Below are positions 1,793 to 13,136 of a stretch of 13,136 nucleotides of DNA, piece by piece. The position numbers and the translations under genes were made by a program. Each line of letters opens with the position of its first letter. Positions within the stretch are counted from its first letter, which is position 1. The DNA comes from a virus (Duplodnaviria > Heunggongvirae > Uroviricota > Caudoviricetes). Location of the stretch: the IMG/VR virus record IMGVR_UViG_2695420602_000002. One strand, written 5' to 3'. Under the pieces are notes generated by a model. The model saw only the letters and a program-made list of their open reading frames with translations. It was not told the DNA's origin and ran no database searches.

Positions 1793-2014
1793 ATGTCATT
1801 ACCAACATCATCTAATGAATATAAAACACAGAAACTTATTAGACTTCCAAAGGTTATTGAAATAACTGGAAAGTCAAGAACACGTATTTATGAAGATATG
1901 AAAGCTAACCGCTTCCCTAAAGCAATTAAAACAGGGTCACGTTCAGTCGCCTGGGTTGAACAAGAAATTGCTGAATGGATAGAGGATAAGAAGAAGCAAC
2001 GATTTCAAAACTGA
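1793..2014 (+). CDS. alpA: AlpA-family (prophage CP4-57 regulatory protein-like) HTH transcriptional regulator / excision activator, 73 aa
   Basis: Core LIRLPKVIEITGKSRTRIYEDM...SVAWVEQEIAEWIE closely parallels E. coli AlpA (ILRLPAVIQKTGMARATIYDWL...SVGWIEAEIDEWL, recalled). ATG at 1793 preferred over the GTG at 1784 because AGGTGG lies 5 nt upstream. Confidence 0.88.
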   Translation: MSLPTSSNEYKTQKLIRLPKVIEITGKSRTRIYEDMKANRFPKAIKTGSRSVAWVEQEIAEWIEDKKKQRFQN

Positions 2015-2035
2015 CCATTTATATTTTCAGTCAAT

Positions 2036-2070
2036 AAAAAACGCCTGCGTTTTGCCGAACGAGGCGTTTT
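2036..2070 (+). terminator. Rho-independent terminator after alpA
   Basis: Stem ACGCCT(2041-2046)/AGGCGT(2062-2067) with an inner CGTT/AACG stem, flanked by an A-tract upstream and TTTT downstream. It sits 22 bp after the alpA stop. Confidence 0.6.
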
Positions 2071-2195
2071 AACTGAGTTAATATCTTAACAGGAATCCAG
2101 CAATGCTTTACTTACCGGAACAACACAATTGTATACGTTTTCTTCTGGCGCTTAAAGCGTTTGACAACAGAAGAAAAAATATTCACCGCAGCCTA

Positions 2196-2225
2196 TTGAC
2201 GTCCCACAATGTACTGTCGTATCGT
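2196..2225 (+). promoter_or_regulatory. Candidate sigma70 promoter (TTGACG-N18-TATCGT) driving the leader / small RNA
   Basis: -35 TTGACG at 2196-2201 and -10 TATCGT at 2220-2225, read from sequence. The 18-nt spacer is one longer than optimal. Confidence 0.3.
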
Positions 2226-2231
2226 TTAAGC

Positions 2232-2310
2232 GTTGCCCCTCAATGGGCAATCGGGCGTGGAAACCCGTATCAGTACAAGGCGACATCAGACGCCGATTGC
2301 GTCTTTTTTA
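2232..2310 (+). ncRNA. Candidate small structured RNA / attenuator leader ending in an intrinsic terminator (possible analogue of the P4 immunity CI RNA region)
   Basis: Hairpin TTGCCC-ctcaat-GGGCAA (2233-2250), hairpin CGGG/CCCG (2252-2267), then a terminator hairpin. Lies between alpA and the early operon. No convincing protein in this stretch. Confidence 0.3.
2288..2310 (+). terminator. Rho-independent terminator (AGACGC-cgatt-GCGTCT followed by TTTTTT)
   Basis: Perfect 6-bp GC-rich stem, 5-nt loop and T6 tract read directly. It lies inside the 199-aa track ORF 2103..2702, arguing against that ORF being one gene. Confidence 0.55.
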
Positions 2311-2504
2311 TTGTCGTTAAATCAGTGCCACCATATTCAGCGGAGCAGATCCGCGCAGTATCAATGGTGGCTCTGGCAGGGCAGCTTTCGGGCTGGCCGG
2401 TCTCCTTGTACGCCGGTATTTCCACCCCTGTCAGTGTCACCACCAATCATGAGCGTGGAAACTCCGGTGGTGACTCCTTAATTAAGTACAAGGAGATCAT
2501 CATT

Positions 2505-2702
2505 ATGATGACAACCCCTGCCCCATTGCATCCCCAATTTGTTTGGCTTTTTCTCGCTGTGCGCCGTTCTGACGTGTCCGCACGTCCACACCGTGAAGAA
2601 GTCACCGCCTCAACCTATCAGGCCGCACGCCGCGTTATAGCGCGTGAATTTATCGCCTCTTTTGCCGGTCGTCTGCCGGTTCGCGAGGTGGCCCATGTTT
2701 AA
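2505..2702 (+). CDS. Hypothetical small protein, 65 aa (early operon gene 1)
   Basis: ATG at 2505 preceded by AAGGAG with a 9-nt spacer. C-terminus ...REVAHV is shared with the next gene. Stop overlaps the next start in ATGTTTAA. Confidence 0.5.
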   Translation: MMTTPAPLHPQFVWLFLAVRRSDVSARPHREEVTASTYQAARRVIAREFIASFAGRLPVREVAHV

Positions 2703-2949
2703 CCCCCTTGATAACCAAAAAGCCGCAACACTTAACCCGTTCCATGATAACCACTACGCGCCGCCAGCTTTCATCAAGCCAGGTACAAAAGTAACGGTTG
2801 AAATAGATTCGCGTGAAATGGAGATCGCCATTTTTGCCGCTTACGATTACGGCCTTGACGCTTTGAACGATAAAGGGCGGGACGTCCTGAACCGCTTAAT
2901 TGCTGAATTAAAAGATCGGATAACAGCTCGTGAGGTGGCTCATGTTTAA
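2695..2949 (+). CDS. Hypothetical small protein, 84 aa (early operon gene 2)
   Basis: Internal ATG at 2695 preceded by GAGGTGG. Overlaps the previous stop, suggesting translational coupling. C-terminus ...AREVAHV. Confidence 0.6.
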   Translation: MFNPLDNQKAATLNPFHDNHYAPPAFIKPGTKVTVEIDSREMEIAIFAAYDYGLDALNDKGRDVLNRLIAELKDRITAREVAHV

Positions 2950-3133
2950 ACTGCTTATCACCCTGATTAATCACGAAGCTGGCGACCGGCGCGAACTGGT
3001 TCACATTGGCCGCTATAAAACCCGCGAAGCTGCATGGAAAGACGCGCAGAAAATGGCGTATATCCATAAGAATGCCATCGGCACCGTAACGCATGAATGT
3101 ATTGTGAAAATTGCGGAGGCCGGAAATGTATAA
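2942..3133 (+). CDS. Hypothetical small protein, 63 aa (early operon gene 3; paralog of gene 4)
   Basis: ATG at 2942 preceded by GAGGTGG. Begins MFKLLIT..., similar to the next gene (MYKLFIT...). Stop overlaps the next start. Confidence 0.55.
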   Translation: MFKLLITLINHEAGDRRELVHIGRYKTREAAWKDAQKMAYIHKNAIGTVTHECIVKIAEAGNV

Positions 3134-3320
3134 ACTGTTCATTACCTGCCGTAACGTTATTACTGGCGAAATACAAAATTATCAAAGCACGCAGGAATAT
3201 AAATCATCCGTTAAGGCGGTGAAAGCAGCCTGTAAAATGGCCGATGTTATTACCTGTAACGGGAAATATGCCGATGATAATGAATACACCGTAACAGTCG
3301 GGAAGGTGAAACATGGCTAA
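3126..3320 (+). CDS. Hypothetical small protein, 64 aa (early operon gene 4; paralog of gene 3)
   Basis: ATG at 3126 overlaps the previous stop in ATGTATAA. Shares the M-[FY]-K-L-x-I-T start and a KMA motif with gene 3. Confidence 0.55.
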   Translation: MYKLFITCRNVITGEIQNYQSTQEYKSSVKAVKAACKMADVITCNGKYADDNEYTVTVGKVKHG

Positions 3321-3546
3321 TATCTTTCGCGGTAAAGTAACAAGGAATAAATCTTATCAGGTTTCTGGTTATGCGGTGACGCGTAAAGGTTATACGCGCA
3401 GTGCACAGGTGACGGTTGAGGCGCTTAATCGCGATGATGCAATAATCCGGGCTACGGCCCAGCTACGTTGGGAAGGATTAACGCATTTTAAAGCGCTAAA
3501 GGTGCTGGAAATAATCACGCCATTATTTATTAATCAGAGCCGATAA
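3313..3546 (+). CDS. Hypothetical small protein, 77 aa (early operon gene 5)
   Basis: ATG at 3313 overlaps the previous stop in ATGGCTAA. GGAAGGTG lies upstream. Confidence 0.55.
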   Translation: MANIFRGKVTRNKSYQVSGYAVTRKGYTRSAQVTVEALNRDDAIIRATAQLRWEGLTHFKALKVLEIITPLFINQSR

Positions 3547-3623
3547 CACGTATTTAATCTGAGTCAGTTTAAACCGAATTAATTTTCGGGGGATGCCTTC
3601 ATCCGTCGAAAGAGGACTATGCC

Positions 3624-3887
3624 ATGACAACAAGTAATCATATTCAGAGTGTTAATCCGTCTCACCTCAGTATTGAGAATTATCACAAACTGAATCGCGC
3701 GAGGAATGTCGCATTTCAGATGCATTTACATATTCGCCAGTGTGAAGCTAACGCGATGCCACTCTTATGGATACCGGATATTTTCAGTTATATCAGTGAA
3801 GATATTTCATCAGTACTACAGGAAGTTAAACGCCTGGGGATTTGTGACAAATATCTGGGACATGCTGTACAAGAAGACAAAGAGTGA
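3624..3887 (+). CDS. Hypothetical protein, 87 aa, immediately upstream of the primase (position analogous to P4 epsilon/orf151; function unknown)
   Basis: ATG at 3624 with AAGAGGA 7 nt upstream. The alternative-frame ORF 3706..3903 lacks an RBS. Confidence 0.55.
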   Translation: MTTSNHIQSVNPSHLSIENYHKLNRARNVAFQMHLHIRQCEANAMPLLWIPDIFSYISEDISSVLQEVKRLGICDKYLGHAVQEDKE

Positions 3888-3926
3888 AATAAAAGCGCCG
3901 TGATGAGCGGCGCTTAAGGATTTTAT

Positions 3927-6596
3927 ATGAACAGAAAAGATCTACGCCCCGAAATCATAAAACGACTGGTGCATGATTACCAGTTTAAAGAGCAGAACGG
4001 CTATCTGCGCTCAGGTATTTGCCCTGAATGTAACAAGAAAGAACTCTTTACCAGCATGGAAAATCCTTGGGTGCTGCGCTGTGGCCGGGAAAATAATTGC
4101 GGCGCTGATCTGTCGGTAAAATCGCTCTATCCTGAATTATTTAACTCATGGTCAGATCGCTATGAGAGCACGCCTGAGCAGCCTTTTGCCGCTGCGGAAG
4201 CCTATCTGAGAGAAGCCAGAGGGCTGGATACTACCTGCTTAAAGGGCTGCTATACGCAGGAAAGCTACCATAAGGGCGGCATGGGAAGCGCAACGGTTCG
4301 CTTTGCCCTGTCTGATGGTATCTGGTGGGAGCGGATTATCGACAAGCCAGAACGCTTTGATCGAAAGGCTAACTTCCACGGTAAGTACGCCGGTCACTGG
4401 TGGGTTCCGCCAGCGCTGGATCTGGCTAAAGTCAGTTGTATCTGGCTAACTGAGGGGATTTTTGACGCCATTAGCCTTTATCAGAACGGCACCCCTGCCG
4501 TTTCCATTATGACTGCCGGAAACTACCCGGAAGCCGCGCTTAAAGCGCTTGCTGAACAATTCCAGGGCAAAGAAAAGCCGTTTCTTGTCTGGGCGCTGGA
4601 CAATGGGAAAGCAGGGGAAACAGCCATACGTCGCCATGTGGCGCGGAGCCGTGAACAAGGCTGGAAAGCCGTTGCCGCACTTCCTTCACAGGGGAGCAAT
4701 AAAGCTGACTGGAACGATCTCCACCTTACCGGAAAGCTGACCAGACGACACCAGAAAGAGTACCGCTATTACGGCGATCTGTTGCTGGCGGAAAGCGCCC
4801 GAGATAAGGCGCTTCGGATGTTTGAACATAATGAACGCCCTGAGTTTCACTTCGAATACGGGAACTGCGTGTACTGGTTTAAGCTGGACATTGAGCGCCA
4901 TATGAAGGCCGTTGAGCGTATCCTTAACGATAAAAAAGTTAATGATGAACGTGAAGCCAGAAGTATTGCATTGAAAGAGTCTGGAGCAATTAAGGAAATA
5001 GCCAATTGTCACCCCGCACCGCTGTATTTTATGCGTTCAGAAGTTACAGACGAGTCCTGGTATTATTTTCGCATCGCCTTTCCAGGCAATACACCCGCAG
5101 TGAAAGACTCCTTTACCGCGGGGCAGATCTCTTCTGCGTCTGAGTTTAAAAAGCGTCTCCTCCATGTGGCAAAAGGTGCGCTCTATACCGGAACCAGCCA
5201 GCAGCTCGATGGTCTGATTAAAAAGGATCTGCCCCGGATCAAAGAGGTCAGGACGCAGGACTTTATTGGGTATAACAGGGACTGGCGGGCATGGGTATTC
5301 AATAAGCTGGCGATACATAACGGGAAGGTCTACTCCTTGAACAGCGAAGATTACTTTGAGATTGGTGGGATGAATATCAAGACACTGAGCCGATCCCCGT
5401 TAATCAATATCAATTCTGATGATAATTCGCTTTCGTCAGGCTGGGCCGATGATATCTGGACGGCTTTTGGTGAAAATGGCTATGTCGCGCTGGCATTCTG
5501 GCTGGGAACATTCTTCGTTGAACAGATACGCGAACAGCAGGCCAGCTTTCCCTTTCTGGAGATTATCGGTGAACCGGGAACAGGTAAATCCACGCTGATT
5601 GATTTTCTCTGGCGGCTCTGTGGCAGGGACAGCTATGAGGGAATTGACCCTTCAAAGGGTTCTGTTGCGGGCATTTATCGTAACTTCGCCCAGGTCTCAA
5701 ACCTTCCCGTCGTGCTGCTTGAAGGCGATCGCGCCCAAGACACGAAGAAGCTGCGCGGCTTTGACTTCGATGAGCTAAAACCGCTCTACAACGGGCGCGG
5801 ATTACGGGCGATTGGTGTTAAGACCAACAACAATGAAACCAGAGAGCCGCCATTCAGGGGCAGCATTGTCATCGCGCAGAATGCCACCGTTAACGCCTCA
5901 CCTGCGATACTGGAACGTATTATCCATGTGTTTACGGATAAACGCCGTCAGTCATCGCTGACCAGGGCGGCGGCTGAACGCCTTGAGCGTCTGCCGGTCG
6001 ATCAGGTATCTGGTTTTATGATCCGGGCGGTATGCAGGGAAAGCGCAGTATTGTCGATTATTCAGGAGGTGTATGAGGCCGAAAAAATCAGGCTGGAACA
6101 ACACTCTGAAATTCGTCATATCCGAATTGCCAAAAATCATGCCCAGATGATTGCATGTGTAAGGGCGCTGACCTGTGTTCTGGATATTCCCGCAGAACGC
6201 CTCGATCGCACCTGTGAACAGCTTACTGTGATGGCGGTGGAGCGGGTTAAATCGCTGGAAGCGGATATCCCTGTGGTTCGTGAGTTCTGGGATGCCTTTG
6301 ATTATCTGAATAGCCTGGAGCGTTTCGGCGTCAACCATTTTGGGAAAGAGAATCGCGACGAGATCGCCATTAACTTCCCTCACCTGATGCGTATAGCTGC
6401 TATGCAGCGTGTAAATATTCCCCCGGCGAAAGAAATTCAGGATTACCTGAAAAACGGGCGTATGCGGCCGTGTACGGGCCAGAAGACGGTAAGAAGTGAG
6501 GTTTCCAGACTGGCAAATCAGGGGCGTGGAGAGGCTGGCCCGAAAGAGCCTGAGCAGGTGAAATGCTGGATTTTTAAAGTGCCGGCCGCTCAGTAG
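3927..6596 (+). CDS. Bifunctional DNA primase-helicase (P4 alpha-like): N-terminal Zn-ribbon, TOPRIM-like region, C-terminal P-loop NTPase; 889 aa
   Basis: Cys cluster CPEC...RCGRENNCG near the N-terminus. TOPRIM-like IWLTEGIFDAISL and VWALDNGKAGE. Walker A GEPGTGKS and Walker B-like VVLLEGD. RBS AAGGA 8 nt upstream. Confidence 0.82.
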   Translation: MNRKDLRPEIIKRLVHDYQFKEQNGYLRSGICPECNKKELFTSMENPWVLRCGRENNCGADLSVKSLYPELFNSWSDRYESTPEQPFAAAEAYLREARGLDTTCLKGCYTQESYHKGGMGSATVRFALSDGIWWERIIDKPERFDRKANFHGKYAGHWWVPPALDLAKVSCIWLTEGIFDAISLYQNGTPAVSIMTAGNYPEAALKALAEQFQGKEKPFLVWALDNGKAGETAIRRHVARSREQGWKAVAALPSQGSNKADWNDLHLTGKLTRRHQKEYRYYGDLLLAESARDKALRMFEHNERPEFHFEYGNCVYWFKLDIERHMKAVERILNDKKVNDEREARSIALKESGAIKEIANCHPAPLYFMRSEVTDESWYYFRIAFPGNTPAVKDSFTAGQISSASEFKKRLLHVAKGALYTGTSQQLDGLIKKDLPRIKEVRTQDFIGYNRDWRAWVFNKLAIHNGKVYSLNSEDYFEIGGMNIKTLSRSPLININSDDNSLSSGWADDIWTAFGENGYVALAFWLGTFFVEQIREQQASFPFLEIIGEPGTGKSTLIDFLWRLCGRDSYEGIDPSKGSVAGIYRNFAQVSNLPVVLLEGDRAQDTKKLRGFDFDELKPLYNGRGLRAIGVKTNNNETREPPFRGSIVIAQNATVNASPAILERIIHVFTDKRRQSSLTRAAAERLERLPVDQVSGFMIRAVCRESAVLSIIQEVYEAEKIRLEQHSEIRHIRIAKNHAQMIACVRALTCVLDIPAERLDRTCEQLTVMAVERVKSLEADIPVVREFWDAFDYLNSLERFGVNHFGKENRDEIAINFPHLMRIAAMQRVNIPPAKEIQDYLKNGRMRPCTGQKTVRSEVSRLANQGRGEAGPKEPEQVKCWIFKVPAAQ

Positions 6597-6611
6597 CAGA
6601 GGAACAATAGT

Positions 6612-7592
6612 ATGACCATTAAAAAACGGGCTGACGGGCGTTATGAAGTCGATATTTATGCCAGAGGGCGCAGCGGTAAGCGCTTTCGCAGGATTTTTGA
6701 CAGAAAGCAGGAGGCAGCGCTCTTTGAACGGTATGTTATGGCGAATGCCGATAAAAAAGAGTGGTTGGGCGCCAGCACCGATCGGCGTACTCTCAGCGAG
6801 CTGCTAAACATCTGGTGGCTGCTGTATGGCCGGACGCTGGAGAACGGAAACGCCGAAAAACGACACCTAGATAAAACGATCAGAGCCCTGGGCAACCCGG
6901 CAGTTAACCGGCTGACTAAACGAATCATCGCGCAGCATCGCAGCGAGCGGCTGGATTCAGGGATCAGCACGGCCACCGTCAACCGTGATATATATCGCCT
7001 TTCGGGTATGTTCAGCGCCCTGATAAAACTGGATGAATTCAAGGCTGATAACCCCTGTAAAGGGCTGGAGCCATTGAGGGAGAAACCAGCAGCAATGACC
7101 TACCTTACTAAATCGGAAATCAGTCGATTATTGAATACCCTTACAGGTGACGATCGCCGTGTTGCTCTTTTGTGCCTCAGCACCGGCGCACGCTGGGGAG
7201 AAGGCAGCACACTGCGGGGAGAGCAGATTAACCACGGACGCGTAACTTTTCTTAAAACCAAAAACGGGAAGAGGCGCACGATCCCAATATCGGATGAACT
7301 GGAAAAAGAGATCAAAACCCGCGATTGCGGGCCGCTGTTCAGCGTTGACTATGAAGCCTTTTGCGGGCGGCTTAGGGAGGTTAAGCCGGACCTGCCGCGC
7401 GGGCAGGCTACGCATGTGCTTCGCCATACGTTTGCAAGCTGGTTCATGATGAACGGGGGCAATATTATCGCCTTACAACAAATTCTTGGTCACGCCAGTA
7501 TCCAGCAGACGATGGTTTATGCGCATGTTGCGCCTGACTATCTGCAACACGCCGTTTCACTCAATCCCCTTTCTGGCGGAATCAGCCTCTGA
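6612..7592 (+). CDS. Second tyrosine recombinase / integrase-family protein with an arm-type N-terminal domain, 326 aa
   Basis: C-terminal catalytic signature HVLRHTFAS ... LGHASIQQTMVYAHV (R, H-x-x-R, H, Y). GAGGAA RBS upstream. Starts 16 bp after the primase stop on the same strand. Confidence 0.78.
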   Translation: MTIKKRADGRYEVDIYARGRSGKRFRRIFDRKQEAALFERYVMANADKKEWLGASTDRRTLSELLNIWWLLYGRTLENGNAEKRHLDKTIRALGNPAVNRLTKRIIAQHRSERLDSGISTATVNRDIYRLSGMFSALIKLDEFKADNPCKGLEPLREKPAAMTYLTKSEISRLLNTLTGDDRRVALLCLSTGARWGEGSTLRGEQINHGRVTFLKTKNGKRRTIPISDELEKEIKTRDCGPLFSVDYEAFCGRLREVKPDLPRGQATHVLRHTFASWFMMNGGNIIALQQILGHASIQQTMVYAHVAPDYLQHAVSLNPLSGGISL

Positions 7593-7595
7593 ATG

Positions 7596-7620
7596 ACCGG
7601 CTGACGGGCCGGTTTACCCC
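7596..7620 (+). terminator. Possible terminator hairpin after the recombinase (ACCGGC-tgacgg-GCCGGT, then TT..CCCCTTT)
   Basis: 6-bp GC stem starting 4 bp after the stop codon. The U-tract is interrupted, so support is modest. Confidence 0.3.
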
Positions 7621-7888
7621 TTTCCCTCGTAGCGTAGATATATTCCCTTCGTTTTTAGCTGTTCTGCATTACGCCCTCATCGCCCGGATCACCGTCGTTT
7701 CTGACCGTTCTGCAGCACGGTTAAAAATGACTGTACTCGATGTATGGCCAGCACTGCCGTAAGTGGCAGTGTTTGCCGGAGTGGAGCCATTGCCGGACAT
7801 TTGGCGAAATGACAAAACATTTAACAGAAAAGAAGCCTTTTTTAAAAAAAAGCAGATTTTCCAGAATTTGAGGGGGGGGATCGGAAAC

Positions 7889-8150
7889 GGGTTACAAAAG
7901 TTACAAAGTAAAGATATAAATATATTATATTGATTTATATGTAATTTTCACCAACTTGGAAAAGTTACAACCGGGTTACGATCGGGTTACTCTGTAACCT
8001 TATCTAAAGTTACAACTTAGATATTTAACTGATTGATTTTATTGGGTGTAACTTTAATGGAACCTTTTGTAACCTCACAAAGGTTACAAATTTAATTAAT
8101 ATAAATCATTGAGTTAAGCATATTATTTCACCCCCGTAACCGTTGTAACC
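7889..8150. repeat. Iteron array in both orientations (core GGTTACAA / TTGTAACC) around an AT-rich stretch; putative origin of replication
   Basis: At least nine copies of the GTTAC(A) core. They include tandem GTTACAAA x2 (7891-7907), palindrome GGTTAC-tct-GTAACC (7985-7999), and 11-bp inverted copies GGTTACAAAAG (7890-7900) and CTTTTGTAACC (8064-8074). AT-rich segment at 7905-7950 and a G8 tract at 7872-7879. Confidence 0.5.
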
Positions 8151-8580
8151 GACTTCCGTACCTCCCCTCAGTTTTTCAGTAAAACAGCTCTTTTTCTGTT
8201 AACCCTTTTTTCACACTTCACTTTCAAATCAGCGTGCACCGAGGGCAATAAATCAACATTGTGCAACACGAAAACAGCGTGCATAACTGGCCCGGGCGCA
8301 GCCGGAGTTTGGCTCTTTTTAAGGTGAAAATGATCGCTGCAAAATCACCGCACAAATTTGCACGCTAATGCACAATTTTTTTGATGGTACTTTTGCCACT
8401 CCAGCCCAGACGGGGCACGGCTTTGGCCGGACTGCACATTTGCACAAAAAAGCGGGCTTTCTGCGTGCGGGCGAGGCGGGGGAACAAGCGCGCGCTGAGA
8501 GGTGAGACAGGATGGCATATCCTGATTATTCTCCGGCTTGATGTGATGCGTTTTATAGATGGGTAATGCAGGAAGGTGGA

Positions 8581-8614
8581 TAATGAAAACACCTCTCAGC
8601 GTGGCTCTGAGAGG
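8581..8614 (-). terminator. Intrinsic terminator-like hairpin on the minus strand (CCUCUCAG-loop-CUGAGAGG followed by UGUUUUC)
   Basis: 8-bp stem (plus strand 8592-8599 / 8607-8614) with a 7-nt loop. The U-rich tract exists only on the minus-strand transcript. About 170 bp downstream of the minus-strand RHH ORF. Confidence 0.4.
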
Positions 8615-8784
8615 CTTATATTGCATCTGGTAGTTGATCACATCTTTTTGTGTTAATGCATCAATTTTTTTGAAGGGAACGGCACCCATCAGGCTAGATC
8701 GTGAAGGATTCAAGGGCAGATCTGTACCATATGAGCGTATGCGGCTGGATGTGTAATACACCCGCTCGTACGGGCTGGGCGGGG

Positions 8785-8994
8785 TTATATTCGATGTTTC
8801 CGGCAGGAATCGATCTCAGGAACGGCTATTCGCCCGATCCCTTTAGCCAGCAGACCCGCACCGGCCAGTTCGATCAGGCAACGACAATAGCTCGCACCAC
8901 TTCGCTTGCTCATCGCCACTATGTACTGATCCAGTTCATTGGGGATCCTCAGTGATTTCAGCACCGACCTGTTATTTCTGGGTAATGTGGGCAT
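8785..8994 (-). CDS. Arc/MetJ-like ribbon-helix-helix DNA-binding protein candidate, 69 aa, divergent from the late-like operon
   Basis: Strong SD (AAGGAGGAA) 4 nt before the ATG. Predicted beta-strand/helix pattern RSVLKSLRIPNELDQYIVAMSKRSGASYCRCLIELAG parallels P22 Arc (FNLRWPREVLDLVRKVAEENGRSVNSEIYQRV, recalled). Codon usage is plausible. Confidence 0.45.
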   Translation of the reverse strand: MPTLPRNNRSVLKSLRIPNELDQYIVAMSKRSGASYCRCLIELAGAGLLAKGIGRIAVPEIDSCRKHRI

Positions 8995-9058
8995 AGTTCC
9001 TCCTTTGGCCTGTCTGCATTATCTGCGCAAACCGTCCGGGACGAATGATGCTTATAGG

Positions 9059-9924: not shown

Positions 9925-10962
9925 ATGAAAAACAGCACCAGAGAAAAATATGATGCATGGTGCTTATTGCAGGCATCACAAAATAAGCTGAACAGTTCAA
10001 AGCTGGATGGGATTTCCTTTTCACTTACACCATCTGCATCGCAAACTATTGTTGATAAGATGCAGGAAAGCGCAGATTTACTTAAACAGATAAATATTCT
10101 GGAAGTGGACGAGCAGGAAGAAGAGTCGATCGGGCTTACATCTGTACCGCTGTCCAGTACGAACAACTCAACGACAGAGGCACGCCAGCCCGTACAAGGT
10201 TGTACAGCAGAGACTGACCGATACCGTTGTGAGCAGGTGAATACTGATACCTATGTTTCTTATGAGAAACTGGATCAGTGGGCGGGCCTTGATAATTTCT
10301 TCGGGCATATGGAGAGCCAGATTTATCGCCGTCAGGCACTGGATGTAATACTGACTGGCATTTATGGCACTCACCATGCGGCTAAATCAGATATTACTGC
10401 TAACCCGTTGCTTCAGGATGTTAATACCGGCTGGTTAGAAAAGTGGCGGCGAAATGCCTCAGCCCGCGTGGTTAATGGTGTATCGGTCAGTCGCCGCAAT
10501 AACGCCAATATTATCGAGTCCAGCGGGGATTACGGTACTATTGACTCTCTGACGATGGAGGCATATCAGGAATTATTAGATCCGTGGCACACCGGGGATT
10601 CAGATCTTGTTGTTATTTGTAATCTCTCATTGATTACAGGAAAGTATTATCCCTTTGTTAATAATCTTGGAGTGACACCAAATAAAGAGTTGCTCGCTTT
10701 AGCATTACAAAATGAGAACCGTCAGATCGGAGGGCTTCCCGTTTGCCCAATTCCGTTCTTTCCTCAAAATGCGATGCTGGTTACTTCGCTTGATAATCTG
10801 TCTTTGTACTGGCAAACAGGAACACACCGCCGCAAAATCTCGGAAGAACCGGAATTTAACCGCGTCTCAACCTATGATTCGTGGAATAACGCCTATGTGG
10901 TCGAAGACTACGGCAAGGGATGCCTGATTGAAGGGATTATCTGGGGTAACGATCAGCGTTAA
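9925..10962 (+). CDS. P2 gpN-family major capsid protein homolog, 345 aa
   Basis: Segments match gpN as recalled from memory: SQTIVDKMQESADLLKQINI (gpN TQTLMNTMQESSDFLTRINI), YRCEQVNTDTYVSYEKLDQWA (gpN YECDQINFDFYIRYKTLDLWA), LLQDVNTGWLEKWR, GDSDLVVI, HRRKISEEPEFNRV...YVVEDYGKGCLIE. The function needs a search to confirm. Confidence 0.6.
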   Translation: MKNSTREKYDAWCLLQASQNKLNSSKLDGISFSLTPSASQTIVDKMQESADLLKQINILEVDEQEEESIGLTSVPLSSTNNSTTEARQPVQGCTAETDRYRCEQVNTDTYVSYEKLDQWAGLDNFFGHMESQIYRRQALDVILTGIYGTHHAAKSDITANPLLQDVNTGWLEKWRRNASARVVNGVSVSRRNNANIIESSGDYGTIDSLTMEAYQELLDPWHTGDSDLVVICNLSLITGKYYPFVNNLGVTPNKELLALALQNENRQIGGLPVCPIPFFPQNAMLVTSLDNLSLYWQTGTHRRKISEEPEFNRVSTYDSWNNAYVVEDYGKGCLIEGIIWGNDQR

Positions 10963-11030: not shown

Positions 11031-11264
11031 ATGGCTATGCGTTGCCCTCAATGCCATGCAACGGCGAAGACAAGAACCAGCGTTGAACTCAGCGACCTGG
11101 TAAGAAAAAGCTATCATCAGTGCCAGAACCTTAAGTGTGGCCTGACGTTTATCTCTATGACAGAGATTTACTGCACGCTTAACCGTCCCGATTTGCCATC
11201 ACATACCCTTGAAGCCCTTCCACCGGACAAGTTCCCGATCAGCCACCAGGAAAAAACGCTGTAA
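11031..11264 (+). CDS. ogr: Ogr/Delta-family zinc-finger late-gene transcriptional activator, 77 aa
   Basis: C5-x2-C8-x22-C31-x4-C36 spacing with the SYHQCQNLKCGLTF motif (P2 Ogr RYHQCQNVNCSATF, recalled). RBS GAGGAGAAG upstream. Confidence 0.85.
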   Translation: MAMRCPQCHATAKTRTSVELSDLVRKSYHQCQNLKCGLTFISMTEIYCTLNRPDLPSHTLEALPPDKFPISHQEKTL

Positions 11265-11888: not shown

Positions 11889-13136
11889 CTATATTGCTGA
11901 AGGTACAGGCGTTTCCATAACTATTTGCTCGCGTTTTTTACTCAGGAAGAAAATGCCAAATAGCAACATCAGGCAGACAATACCCGAAATTGCGAAGAAA
12001 ACTGTCTGGTAGCCTGCGTGGTCAAAGAGTATCCCAGTCGGCGTTGAAAGCAGCACAATCCCAAGCGAACTGGCAATTTGAAAACCAATCAGAAAGATCG
12101 TCGACGACAGGCGCTTATCAAAATTTGCCACGCTGTATTTGAAGACGGATATGACACAAAGTGGAACCTCAATGGCATGTAACAGCTTCACTAATGAAAT
12201 AATCCAGGGGTTAACGAACAGCGCGCAGGAAAGGATACGCAACGCCATAATCACAACACCGATAAGTAATGCATTTTTTGGCCCTACCCGATTCACAAAG
12301 AAAGGAATAATCGCCATGCATAGCGCTTCGAGTACCACCTGGAATGAGTTGAGATAACCATACAGGCGCGTTCCTACATCGTGTGATTCGAATAAACCTG
12401 CATAAAAGACAGGAAAAAGTTGTTGATCAAAAATGTTATAGAAAGACCACGTCCCCACAATAAATATGACGAAAACCCAGAAGTTTCGATCCTTGAAAAC
12501 TGCGATAAAATCCTCTTTTTTTACCCCTCCCGCATCCGCCGCTACGCACTGGTGATCCTTATCTTTAAAACACATGTTGATCATCATAAATACAGCGCCA
12601 AATAGCGAGACCAACCAGAAGTTGATATGGGGACTGATACTAAAAAATATGCCGGCAAAGAACGCGCCAATAGCATAGCCAAAAGATCCCCAGGCGCGCG
12701 CTGTTCCATATTCGAAATGAAAATTTCGCGCCATTTTTTCGGTGAAACTGTCAAGCAAACCGCATCCCGCCAGATACCCCAGGCCAAAAAAGAGCGCCCC
12801 CAGAATTAGACCTACAGAAAAATTGCTTTGCAGTAACGGTTCATAAACGTAAATCATAAACGGTCCGGTCAAGACCAGGATGAAACTCATACACCAGATG
12901 AGCGGATTCTTCAGACCGAGTTTATCCTGAACGATGCCGTAGAACATCATAAATAGAATGCTGGTAAACTGGTTGACCGAATAAAGTGTACCTAATTCCG
13001 TCCCTGTCAACCCTAGATGTCCTTTCAGCCAAATAGCGTATAACGACCACCACAGCGACCAGGAAATAAAAAAGAGAAATGAGTAACTGGATGCAAAACG
13101 ATAGTACGCATTTCTGAATGGAATATTCAGTGCCAT
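11889..13136 (-). CDS. cscB: Sucrose:H+ symporter (LacY-family MFS oligosaccharide permease), 415 aa
   Basis: Full ORF whose start is the last base of the window. The sequence (MALNIPFRNAYYRFASSYSFLFF...) matches E. coli CscB as recalled and shows LacY-family motifs and multiple hydrophobic spans. Confidence 0.85.
   Translation of the reverse strand: MALNIPFRNAYYRFASSYSFLFFISWSLWWSLYAIWLKGHLGLTGTELGTLYSVNQFTSILFMMFYGIVQDKLGLKNPLIWCMSFILVLTGPFMIYVYEPLLQSNFSVGLILGALFFGLGYLAGCGLLDSFTEKMARNFHFEYGTARAWGSFGYAIGAFFAGIFFSISPHINFWLVSLFGAVFMMINMCFKDKDHQCVAADAGGVKKEDFIAVFKDRNFWVFVIFIVGTWSFYNIFDQQLFPVFYAGLFESHDVGTRLYGYLNSFQVVLEALCMAIIPFFVNRVGPKNALLIGVVIMALRILSCALFVNPWIISLVKLLHAIEVPLCVISVFKYSVANFDKRLSSTIFLIGFQIASSLGIVLLSTPTGILFDHAGYQTVFFAISGIVCLMLLFGIFFLSKKREQIVMETPVPSAI

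Follow-up and report, generated by a model that had tools for sequence, protein, structure and literature searches.

Five overlapping small genes behind a putative C4-type immunity RNA in a P4-like phage satellite, with a duplicated gene junction as a candidate fusion scar

In satellite P4, for which P2-type phages serve as helpers, the left operon runs in the order PLE, seqA, CI RNA, seqC, 'cI ORF137' (an Icd-like frame), epsilon, orf151, cnr and alpha. The CI RNA pairs with seqA and seqC, leading to premature termination, and isrK is a homolog of seqA; the Rfam isrK and C4 models pick up RNAs related to P4 seqA and to the P4 CI immunity RNA (PMC4825925, PMC10111431). In phage P1, icd causes a block of cell division and is required for expression of ant under C4 control; icd is the first gene to be translated, and those downstream of it are dependent on this (PMC8201110). 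We describe here a block of five overlapping small genes, at positions 2505-3546 of a 13,136-nucleotide (nt) stretch of viral DNA (Caudoviricetes; IMG/VR record IMGVR_UViG_2695420602_000002), the whole of which is termed the window and which, judged by its gene content, is a P4-like phage satellite.

The five genes probably constitute the promoter-proximal coding part of an immunity-controlled early ("left") operon of this satellite. In architecture the block follows the known early operon of P4 and P1 that is under immunity control, to which four orphan genes have been added. Its features are largely explained on that basis, and the current picture of P4-like satellites is unchanged. What the block offers is four uncharacterised small families, one of them common to P2-like phages and the satellites of these phages, placed under an RNA immunity switch that is well understood, where they should be easy to test.

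An early gene block behind a C4-type RNA

The features of the block, all on the plus strand, are as follows (SD, Shine-Dalgarno; aa, amino acids).

2196-2225, plus: sigma-70-like promoter candidate, TTGACG-18-TATCGT, start near 2232 (consensus scan only, 9/12)
2232-2309, plus: isrK/seqA-like leader RNA (Rfam RF01394, 57 bits against a gathering threshold of 50)
2257-2263 and 2273-2280, plus: target set 1, in the leader, GTGGAAA and GTACAAGG, complementary to the C4 elements
2360-2447, plus: C4/CI-type antisense immunity RNA (Rfam RF01695, 79 bits against 45, model positions 1-87 of 87)
2455-2496, plus: target set 2, in the gene 1 initiation region, GTGGAAA (2455-2461) and GTACAAGGAGA (2486-2496), complementary to C4
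2505-2702, plus: gene 1, Icd-like, 65 aa (NCBIfam NF033153)
2681-2702, plus: junction copy 1, comprising the icd tail SREVAHV*, the SD GAGGTG and the gene 2 start
2695-2949, plus: gene 2, 84 aa, of a small family common to P2/186-like prophages
2928-2949, plus: junction copy 2, same sequence as the lone icd-gene 3 junction where gene 2 is missing
2942-3133, plus: gene 3, 63 aa (24 clusters, all Enterobacterales)
3126-3320, plus: gene 4, 64 aa, paralog of gene 3 (hhalign 96%; 12 clusters)
3313-3546, plus: gene 5, 77 aa, of a small orphan family

The leader ends in an intrinsic terminator, a stem at 2288-2304 followed by a T-run (terminator scan). The C4/CI-type RNA presents a loop element a' (TCTCCTTGTAC, 2401-2411) and a single-stranded element b' (TTTCCAC, 2419-2425), and the targets of each occur once 5' and once 3' of C4. 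The 7-nt complement of b' is GTGGAAA, and the loop finds a perfect 11-nt complement in GTACAAGGAGA, which contains the SD of gene 1, AAGGAG (2490-2495). This site is the best of 517 window positions for a duplex with the C4 loop region, a statement of rank only, as the absolute RNA duplex energies looked inflated. Both C4 elements and all four targets change together in the related loci (cited here by L number) L020, L004, L009 and L002: the loop is TCCGATAAC with target GTTATCGGA in L020, L004 and L009 and CTATCAC with GTGATAG in L002, and the second element is TTCTCAC with GTGAGAA in L020 and CTGCTAA with TTAGCAG in L002. Given this covariation of loop and target between elements, immunity would be element-specific.

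The Scandinavium element L020 deserves separate mention. Its proteins are 89-94% identical to those of the window, yet both C4 elements and the four targets are compensatorily swapped (window 2360-2500 compared with L020 4666-4810; TCTCCTTGTAC to TCCGATAAC, TTTCCAC to TTCTCAC), which looks like an immunity-specificity switch between near-identical satellites. Within 5619-9014 of the same locus gene 5 is truncated at residue 62 and no epsilon or alpha homolog precedes the second integrase, so that the element appears rearranged or degraded.

Gene 1 can be assigned, from its profile match, as a recognised Icd-like gene: it matches NCBIfam NF033153 ("host cell division inhibitor Icd-like") over 48 of 48 profile positions with 61.2 bits against a cut-off of 25 (E 7e-17), and is 44% identical to the C-terminal part of P4 'cI ORF137' ('cI (AA 1-137)'). 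Its start at 2505 lies directly 3' of the C4 RNA (2360-2447), and the P4 homolog is placed likewise. The Icd-type protein of P1 is a reversible cell-division inhibitor, and by analogy gene 1 probably arrests cell division in the same manner; gene 1 is tied to P1 icd by the NCBIfam model name and by PY54 icd (36% identity), no P1 record being among the tblastn matches at E<=1e-3. An Icd-like gene 1 behind a C4/CI RNA with paired targets argues that the block begins an early operon of the P4 left-operon or P1 immI type. The initial annotation of this DNA had recognised no family among the five products and had proposed profile and structure searches; these leave genes 2-5 without a characterised family, as it had stated, or a fold whose function is known, and place gene 1 among the Icd-like proteins.

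In reference genomes the same region carries a PGAP/RefSeq open reading frame (ORF) of 199 aa, called "Icd-like" and starting at 2103 (2103-2702), residues 50-146 of which match Pfam Phage_ASH. Since this stretch coincides with the isrK/C4 region, the N-terminal two thirds of the frame are most likely a non-coding ORF shadow over the RNA genes; we flag as an annotation problem that a 199-aa "Icd-like/Ash" ORF overlies two RNA genes. The extent of this Icd-like ORF varies among related loci (75, 160, 196, 199 and 256 aa), and the start at 2505 is supported by standalone 67-aa icd genes in L011 and L017 and by the SD-ATG at 2490-2507.

The coordinates and stop/start overlaps of the five ORFs are as first annotated. 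The four 8-nt overlaps all have the form ATGnnTAA, being ATGTTTAA at both 2695-2702 and 2942-2949, ATGTATAA at 3126-3133 and ATGGCTAA at 3313-3320, and SD-like motifs (GAGGTG, GAGGTG, GGAGG and AAGGTG, in order) lie 4-6 nt 5' of the internal starts, within the last codons of the upstream gene. All junctions thus conform to one plan, SD-N4-6-ATGnnTAA, a good fit to the translational coupling that had been suggested for them. All five genes, their overlaps included, are conserved in elements of Salmonella, E. coli, Scandinavium and metagenomes, and the ratio of nonsynonymous to synonymous substitution (dN/dS, pairwise, where divergence was sufficient) is mostly 0.08-0.37 (0.14-0.33 for gene 1). 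The five genes are coding and under purifying selection, and their earlier description as rapidly diversifying is not borne out.

These elements can be assembled into a scheme of control. The transcript would begin near 2232, run through the isrK/seqA-like leader and its terminator, and then take in the C4/CI-type RNA, which is presumably excised from it. In the immune state, the C4/CI RNA would pair with the targets in the leader and at the SD of gene 1, leaving gene 1 untranslated. As each of genes 2-5 starts 8 nt before the previous stop, with its SD inside the last codons of the upstream gene, these genes would be silenced too by coupling, and epsilon and alpha probably also by polarity (termination before them). 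Upon infection or derepression, the whole string would be translated as a unit. We infer translational coupling, polarity and RNA processing, as well as the functions of genes 2-5; the steps of control are drawn from the P1 and P4 precedents (PMC8201110, PMC4825925).

Several points weigh against this operon. The promoter call at 2196-2225, just 5' of position 1 of the isrK model match, is weak; a promoter-like site at 3487-3515 could lend epsilon and alpha some independence; and the spacing of 9 nt between AAGGAG and the ATG at 2505 is rather long. We nevertheless regard the immunity-controlled operon as the probable arrangement, and the initial call of these as early genes agrees with their place in an early operon that would continue into epsilon and alpha.

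Resemblance to P4 is closest at both ends, where immunity RNA, Icd-like ORF, epsilon and alpha follow in the same order. Overlaps of 8 nt are also found in P4, between icd and epsilon (GTGCGTAA) and between epsilon and orf151 (ATGTTTGA); in both elements the icd tail encodes the SD of the next gene (P4, GTGGAGGTGTCCCGTGCGTAA), and both have an antisense RNA with one upstream and one downstream target (PMC4825925). The window differs in having four extra coupled genes (2-5) between icd and epsilon, in an epsilon that is not overlapped with icd and is preceded by a gap of 77 nt, and in the lack of any noted orf151 or cnr homolog. A P2-family capsid gene and a second integrase are further differences, and a Pfam scan, run without dedicated Sid or Psu profiles, recognised neither psu nor sid.

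Like the immI locus of P1/P7 (c4 - icd - ant1/2), the window has a C4-family RNA (by Rfam model) with two complementary elements and two target copies for each, the second set lying at the icd ribosome-binding site, and loop/target pairs that co-vary between elements. The details of the translation dependence within immI are reportedly those of Citron and Schuster (1990) and Riedel et al. (1993). The Ant antirepressor is missing from the window, as genes 2-5 show no match to Ant or to a family in Pfam, PHROG or NCBIfam; its functional analogue would be epsilon, further downstream. By analogy, then, the block would work like immI but is not a member of it. The isrK-orf45-anrP region of Salmonella Gifsy-1 has in common with the window an isrK-type leader small RNA ending in a terminator, read-through into coupled small ORFs with stop/start overlap, and a processed RNA 3' of isrK (PMC4825925). 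There, however, IsrK acts in trans to activate translation, yielding an antirepressor and then an antiterminator, whereas the sequence of the window suggests C4-type repression.

Gain or loss of gene 2 and a proposed module of genes 3 to 5

The junctions following genes 1 and 2 are near-identical, as had been noticed at the outset: the 21-mers at 2682-2702 and 2929-2949 agree at 19 of 21 positions, the two differences being synonymous transitions, and the block of identity in fact extends to 22 nt (2681-2702 and 2928-2949, 20 of 22), beyond which the flanks fall to a background of 30-50%. Related elements give this repeat its meaning. Gene 3 comes straight after icd in Erwinia tracheiphila (L004-7), Klebsiella (L008-10 and L082/83) and metagenome contigs (L035, L070 and L052), and the full order icd-gene 3-gene 4-gene 5, without gene 2, is found in Erwinia L004-7, L035, L070, L052 and Klebsiella L082/83. 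Their icd-gene 3 junction, ...TTCGTGAGGTGGCTCATGTTTAAACTGCTTATCACC, is identical to junction 2 of the window in L004-7, L035 and L070 and near-identical in the others, and alignment of five- with four-gene elements leaves one clean 247-bp indel bounded by the repeat. The conserved junction thus occurs in five-gene and gene 2-less elements alike, in answer to a check that the initial annotation had recommended. Since icd is joined directly to gene 3 by this same junction in many related satellites, the repeat appears to mark a 247-bp insertion or loss of gene 2.

Gene 2 itself belongs to a family of 16 clusters, its profile finding 2 loci among 185,579 species-representative genomes and tblastn none in 50,697 phage records. 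In an alignment the core is conserved up to ...LKDxIT, and the tails beyond it vary by context: AREVAHV is confined to five-gene elements, a group exemplified by the E. coli satellites L017-19 has EARYA or GARYA, satellites of Salmonella have GQGNYRGIL*, P2/186-like prophages have GR*, and GAGRG* is a further unrelated tail. In the P2/186-like prophages (L014-16) and in Rosenbergiella (L021), homologs stand in the early operon between cox and a DUF4761/fil pair. A comparison of the Icd profile with a gene 2 profile made from members without the icd-type tail yields an hhalign probability of 0.1%. The variable tails, the prophage context and this probability together argue that gene 2 is an independent early gene of which only the last 7 codons are icd-derived. 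Its dN/dS is 0.08-0.25, and the AlphaFold2 (AF2) model (pLDDT 64), too uncertain for a fold search, comprises a disordered N-terminus and a C-terminal helical hairpin.

We therefore read the similarity of genes 1 and 2 as a 22-nt fusion scar and not as a gene duplication. In such an event the 3' end of gene 2 would have been joined, after ...ATAACAG, to the last 22 nt of the icd gene preceding gene 3, creating the duplicated 22-nt junction; the start of gene 2, ATGTTTAAC (MFN, invariant even in phages), supplies the icd stop. A tightly coupled operon could in this way gain or lose a whole gene, its coupling intact, through fusion of the incoming gene to the final codons of the one before it. 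This resembles the modular (mosaic) exchange of phage genes in that the gene 2 indel is bounded exactly by gene junctions and gene 2 occurs in different neighbourhoods, satellites versus P2-like phages. It differs in that the boundary is a duplicated coding tail plus a start/stop overlap that keeps the coupling intact, and we found no description of such a boundary in the literature covered.

Insertion of gene 2 is not the only direction that the indel may have taken. The five-gene form could be ancestral, and four-gene elements could have arisen repeatedly, with recombination or slippage at the 22-nt repeats removing gene 2 precisely; direct repeats around 247 bp are indeed a classic substrate for deletion. 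Gene 2 is present or absent within each of two sub-lineages. In the first, it is found in the window, L022, L024 and L020, and is missing from L035 and L070, whose genes 3-5 are near-identical; in the second, it is found in L025 and is absent from L052, L082 and L083, although icd, gene 3 and gene 4 (and gene 5) of L025 and L052 are about 89-95% identical. Because of this distribution, deletion mediated by the repeat is as plausible for individual elements as insertion, which also tells against our account as given above. Moreover, gene 2 of L025 is as diverged from the window copy (dS 0.97) as are its flanking genes, which speaks against its recent acquisition from any donor sampled; gene 2 may also have been transferred by ordinary recombination within icd and gene 3 on either side. 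On the other hand, an ancestral five-gene form leaves the origin of the icd tail of gene 2 unexplained, so that a fusion event is still needed; four-gene or gene 3-only forms occur in more, and more distant, hosts (Erwinia, Serratia, Klebsiella, metagenomes); and the two repeat copies drift independently among five-gene elements. As a general explanation we find repeated deletion somewhat unlikely, and retain the fusion of an incoming gene 2 to the icd tail.

The E. coli satellites L017-19 (4985-5249) have gene 2 directly after a 67-aa icd, and the gene downstream is unrelated to gene 3. The gene 2 tail EARYA (GGAGGCGCGGTATGCATAA) of these satellites resembles their own icd tail EARHV (GGAGGCGCGCCATGTTTAA), with GGAGGCGCG shared, and is identical to it at 15 of 21 positions, as against 11 of 21 for the icd tail of the window; the match is a short one. 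As this tail is closer to its own icd tail, junction copies cluster by element and not by position, which hints at a recurrent process. Together with the presence or absence of gene 2 at an identical site in two sub-lineages, these tails form the basis of a more speculative proposal, for which we would claim little likelihood: that the duplicated icd-tail junction provides portable homology arms by which gene 2 is looped out and re-inserted at the stop/start junction behind icd. If true, this would amount to an integrase-free exchange of cassettes inside a coupled operon, with frames, internal SD and coupling preserved. The exact 21-mer is absent from the viral contig collection, and an 18-mer scan of metagenomes returned 53 stretches, comprising 4 of this element family, 2 distant icd-like matches (35% identity) and 47 with no similarity to the proteins of the window.

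Genes 3 and 4 are, by their sequences, true tandem paralogs. They are identical at 15 of 39 positions by BLASTP (E 1e-5) and align by hhalign at 96% (E 3.5e-9), over their full length with one gap and with six invariant columns (M1, N10, Y25, A31, A35 and E52), and the relation is reproduced in a divergent Salmonella element (L002/3). Some elements, in Klebsiella (L008-10) and Serratia symbiotica (L080), carry gene 3 alone, and this is consistent with an origin of gene 4 by tandem duplication of gene 3. The AF2 model of gene 3 (pLDDT 92.8) is a beta-beta-alpha-beta-beta arrangement with strands at 2-10, 15-25, 40-43 and 49-59 and a helix at 28-38, without a significant fold match (Foldseek E no better than 0.16 in PDB and 0.005 in BFVD). 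The weak matches to generic alpha+beta folds, two anti-CRISPR proteins among them, were judged non-specific. For gene 5, 13 matches at E<=1e-3 were obtained among 1.84 billion representatives, of which 9 are genuine and four, to long proteins, were dismissed as spurious (three of these could be scanned and proved to be FG-GAP, cadherin and HEAT repeat proteins). A relation of genes 3/4 to gene 5, guessed from a similar order of secondary structure, has no support in sequence.

Genes 2-5 gave nothing significant in Pfam, NCBIfam, PHROGs or PADLOC, and PDB searches with family profiles returned only chance or repeat-driven matches (designed Kelch proteins for gene 5, for example); none of the five proteins had a match better than E 0.038 in PADLOC-DB, which holds no anti-defence models. 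All of the contexts retrieved for genes 3-5 are satellites, in which these genes lie between icd and an epsilon-like gene or a protein of 118-123 aa, followed by alpha. We propose that the products of genes 2-5 are small early effectors directed at the host or the P2-type helper. Genes 3-5 would form a module that is conserved within the lineage and specific to it, and gene 2 would be an accessory gene, mobile between the satellites and phages of the helper type. A more remote possibility is that genes 3-5 are a new helper-exploitation module.

The alternative, that genes 2-5 are arms-race cargo with anti-defence or helper-interference roles and not a conserved early module, draws on their nature as small, early-expressed orphan proteins in a satellite, and on the mobility of gene 2, common to P2-like phages and there placed beside fil-type host-takeover genes. 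Unlike fast-turnover cargo, however, genes 3-5 are syntenic and under purifying selection across several genera, and the known hotspot of variable defence genes in P4-like elements is reportedly at another site, flanked by psu and int (PMC9122126). The absence of a PADLOC match also speaks against cargo, except for its anti-defence half, on which it is uninformative. On balance we hold the cargo interpretation to be unlikely and prefer a conserved early module with a mobile gene 2.

The likeness between genes 1 and 2

The raw match of the two junctions is less telling than it appears. In 300 codon shuffles of the block none reached 19/21 (the maximum, 18, was attained in 2 shuffles), a statistic qualified by the fact that 9 of the 21 nt (CATGTTTAA) are forced by M-F-[N/K] starts and 6 more (GAGGTG) are the SD. 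Because these positions are so accounted for, the raw 21-mer match is weaker evidence than it seems; the case for a fusion scar rests on the comparative data and not on this match.

The same constraints raise the question of convergence, as both junctions need a well-spaced SD and both downstream genes start with ATGTTTAA. Functional demands account for 15 of the 21 positions (GAGGTG and CATGTTTAA); the gene 2 homologs, those of phages included, open with MFN and the gene 3 homologs with MFK; and the SD-spacer-ATGnnTAA plan is common to all four junctions. Yet junctions 3 and 4 satisfy these constraints with different sequences, GGAGGCCGGAAATGTATAA and AAGGTGAAACATGGCTAA, whereas the remaining positions of junctions 1 and 2 match as well, save for the two synonymous transitions. 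Furthermore, in elements that have no gene 2 the junction of icd with gene 3 has the sequence of junction 2, the indel is delimited by the repeat, and relatives of gene 2 outside this lineage have no REVAHV tail. Convergence is, in our estimation, very improbable.

More improbable still, and largely refuted, is the view that genes 1 and 2 are tandem paralogs, gene 2 being a diverged icd duplicate with the junction as its best-conserved remnant: although BLASTP aligns their C-termini at 12 of 27 identities (E 1e-4, in a single comparison) and a true tandem icd duplication does exist in Klebsiella L008-10, DNA identity drops abruptly to background 22 nt before the stop, the tail-less gene 2 profile and Icd remain unrelated at a probability of 0.1%, gene 2 homologs elsewhere end in GR*, GQGNYRGIL* or GAGRG*, and the predicted fold of gene 2 is a disordered N-terminus with a helical hairpin. 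Of the two tandem paralog pairs originally claimed, the homology of genes 3 and 4 therefore stands, while that of genes 1 and 2 gives way to similarity confined to the junction tail.

The Klebsiella loci L008-L010 have two tandem icd-like frames (about 5628-6008 in L008/L009), with 43% and 71% identity to gene 1; here, in contrast to genes 1 and 2 of the window, icd has truly been duplicated.

The satellite and its surroundings

Outside the block, the following features were assigned.

1-1260: tyrosine integrase
1784-2014: AlpA-type regulator
3624-3887, plus: epsilon-like helper-derepression protein, "Derepression" (Pfam PF25738, E 6e-20)
3927-6596, plus: alpha-type primase/helicase, 889 aa (Toprim domains; annotation in L001)
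6612-7592: second tyrosine recombinase, Int_N type, 326 aa
9150-9887: 245-aa ORF, no Pfam match
9925-10962: P2-family major capsid gene, full length (PF05125, E 6e-99)
11031-11264: Ogr/Delta zinc-finger gene
11889-13136, minus: LacY-family sugar permease, right flank (PF01306, E 2e-192)

The core set of P4-like satellites is recovered among the Pfam matches (Phage_integrase, Phage_AlpA, Derepression, Toprim and Ogr_Delta), in accord with the satellite identity that had been assumed from the start. A copy of window positions 2000-3950 that is 100% identical adjoins tRNA-Arg in E. coli KCJ3K291, the sole genome with most of the query among 5,426 complete E. coli genomes, and a second identical copy occurs in a human-gut metagenome contig (L029). 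In E. coli KCJ3K291 (L001) the identical element is followed by intS, whereas the right flank of the window is the LacY-family permease; these different flanks place the same satellite in at least two genomic neighbourhoods.

Between 7600 and 9150 lie 1.5 kb with short, unconvincing ORFs only. RefSeq gives here one hypothetical protein of 69 aa (8785-8994, minus strand), which has no Pfam or PADLOC match, and a 138-aa ORF at 8345-8761 has no Pfam match. The capsid gene lies near alpA in L002, L011 and L017, and in the window at 9925-10962, after the 245-aa ORF and before Ogr/Delta. The second integrase (6612-7592) stands directly 3' of the primase, a position kept in nearly all related elements, and is 41% identical to a tblastn match located between a tRNA cluster and the gene 2 homolog in Rosenbergiella L021, which we take to be the integrase of that prophage.

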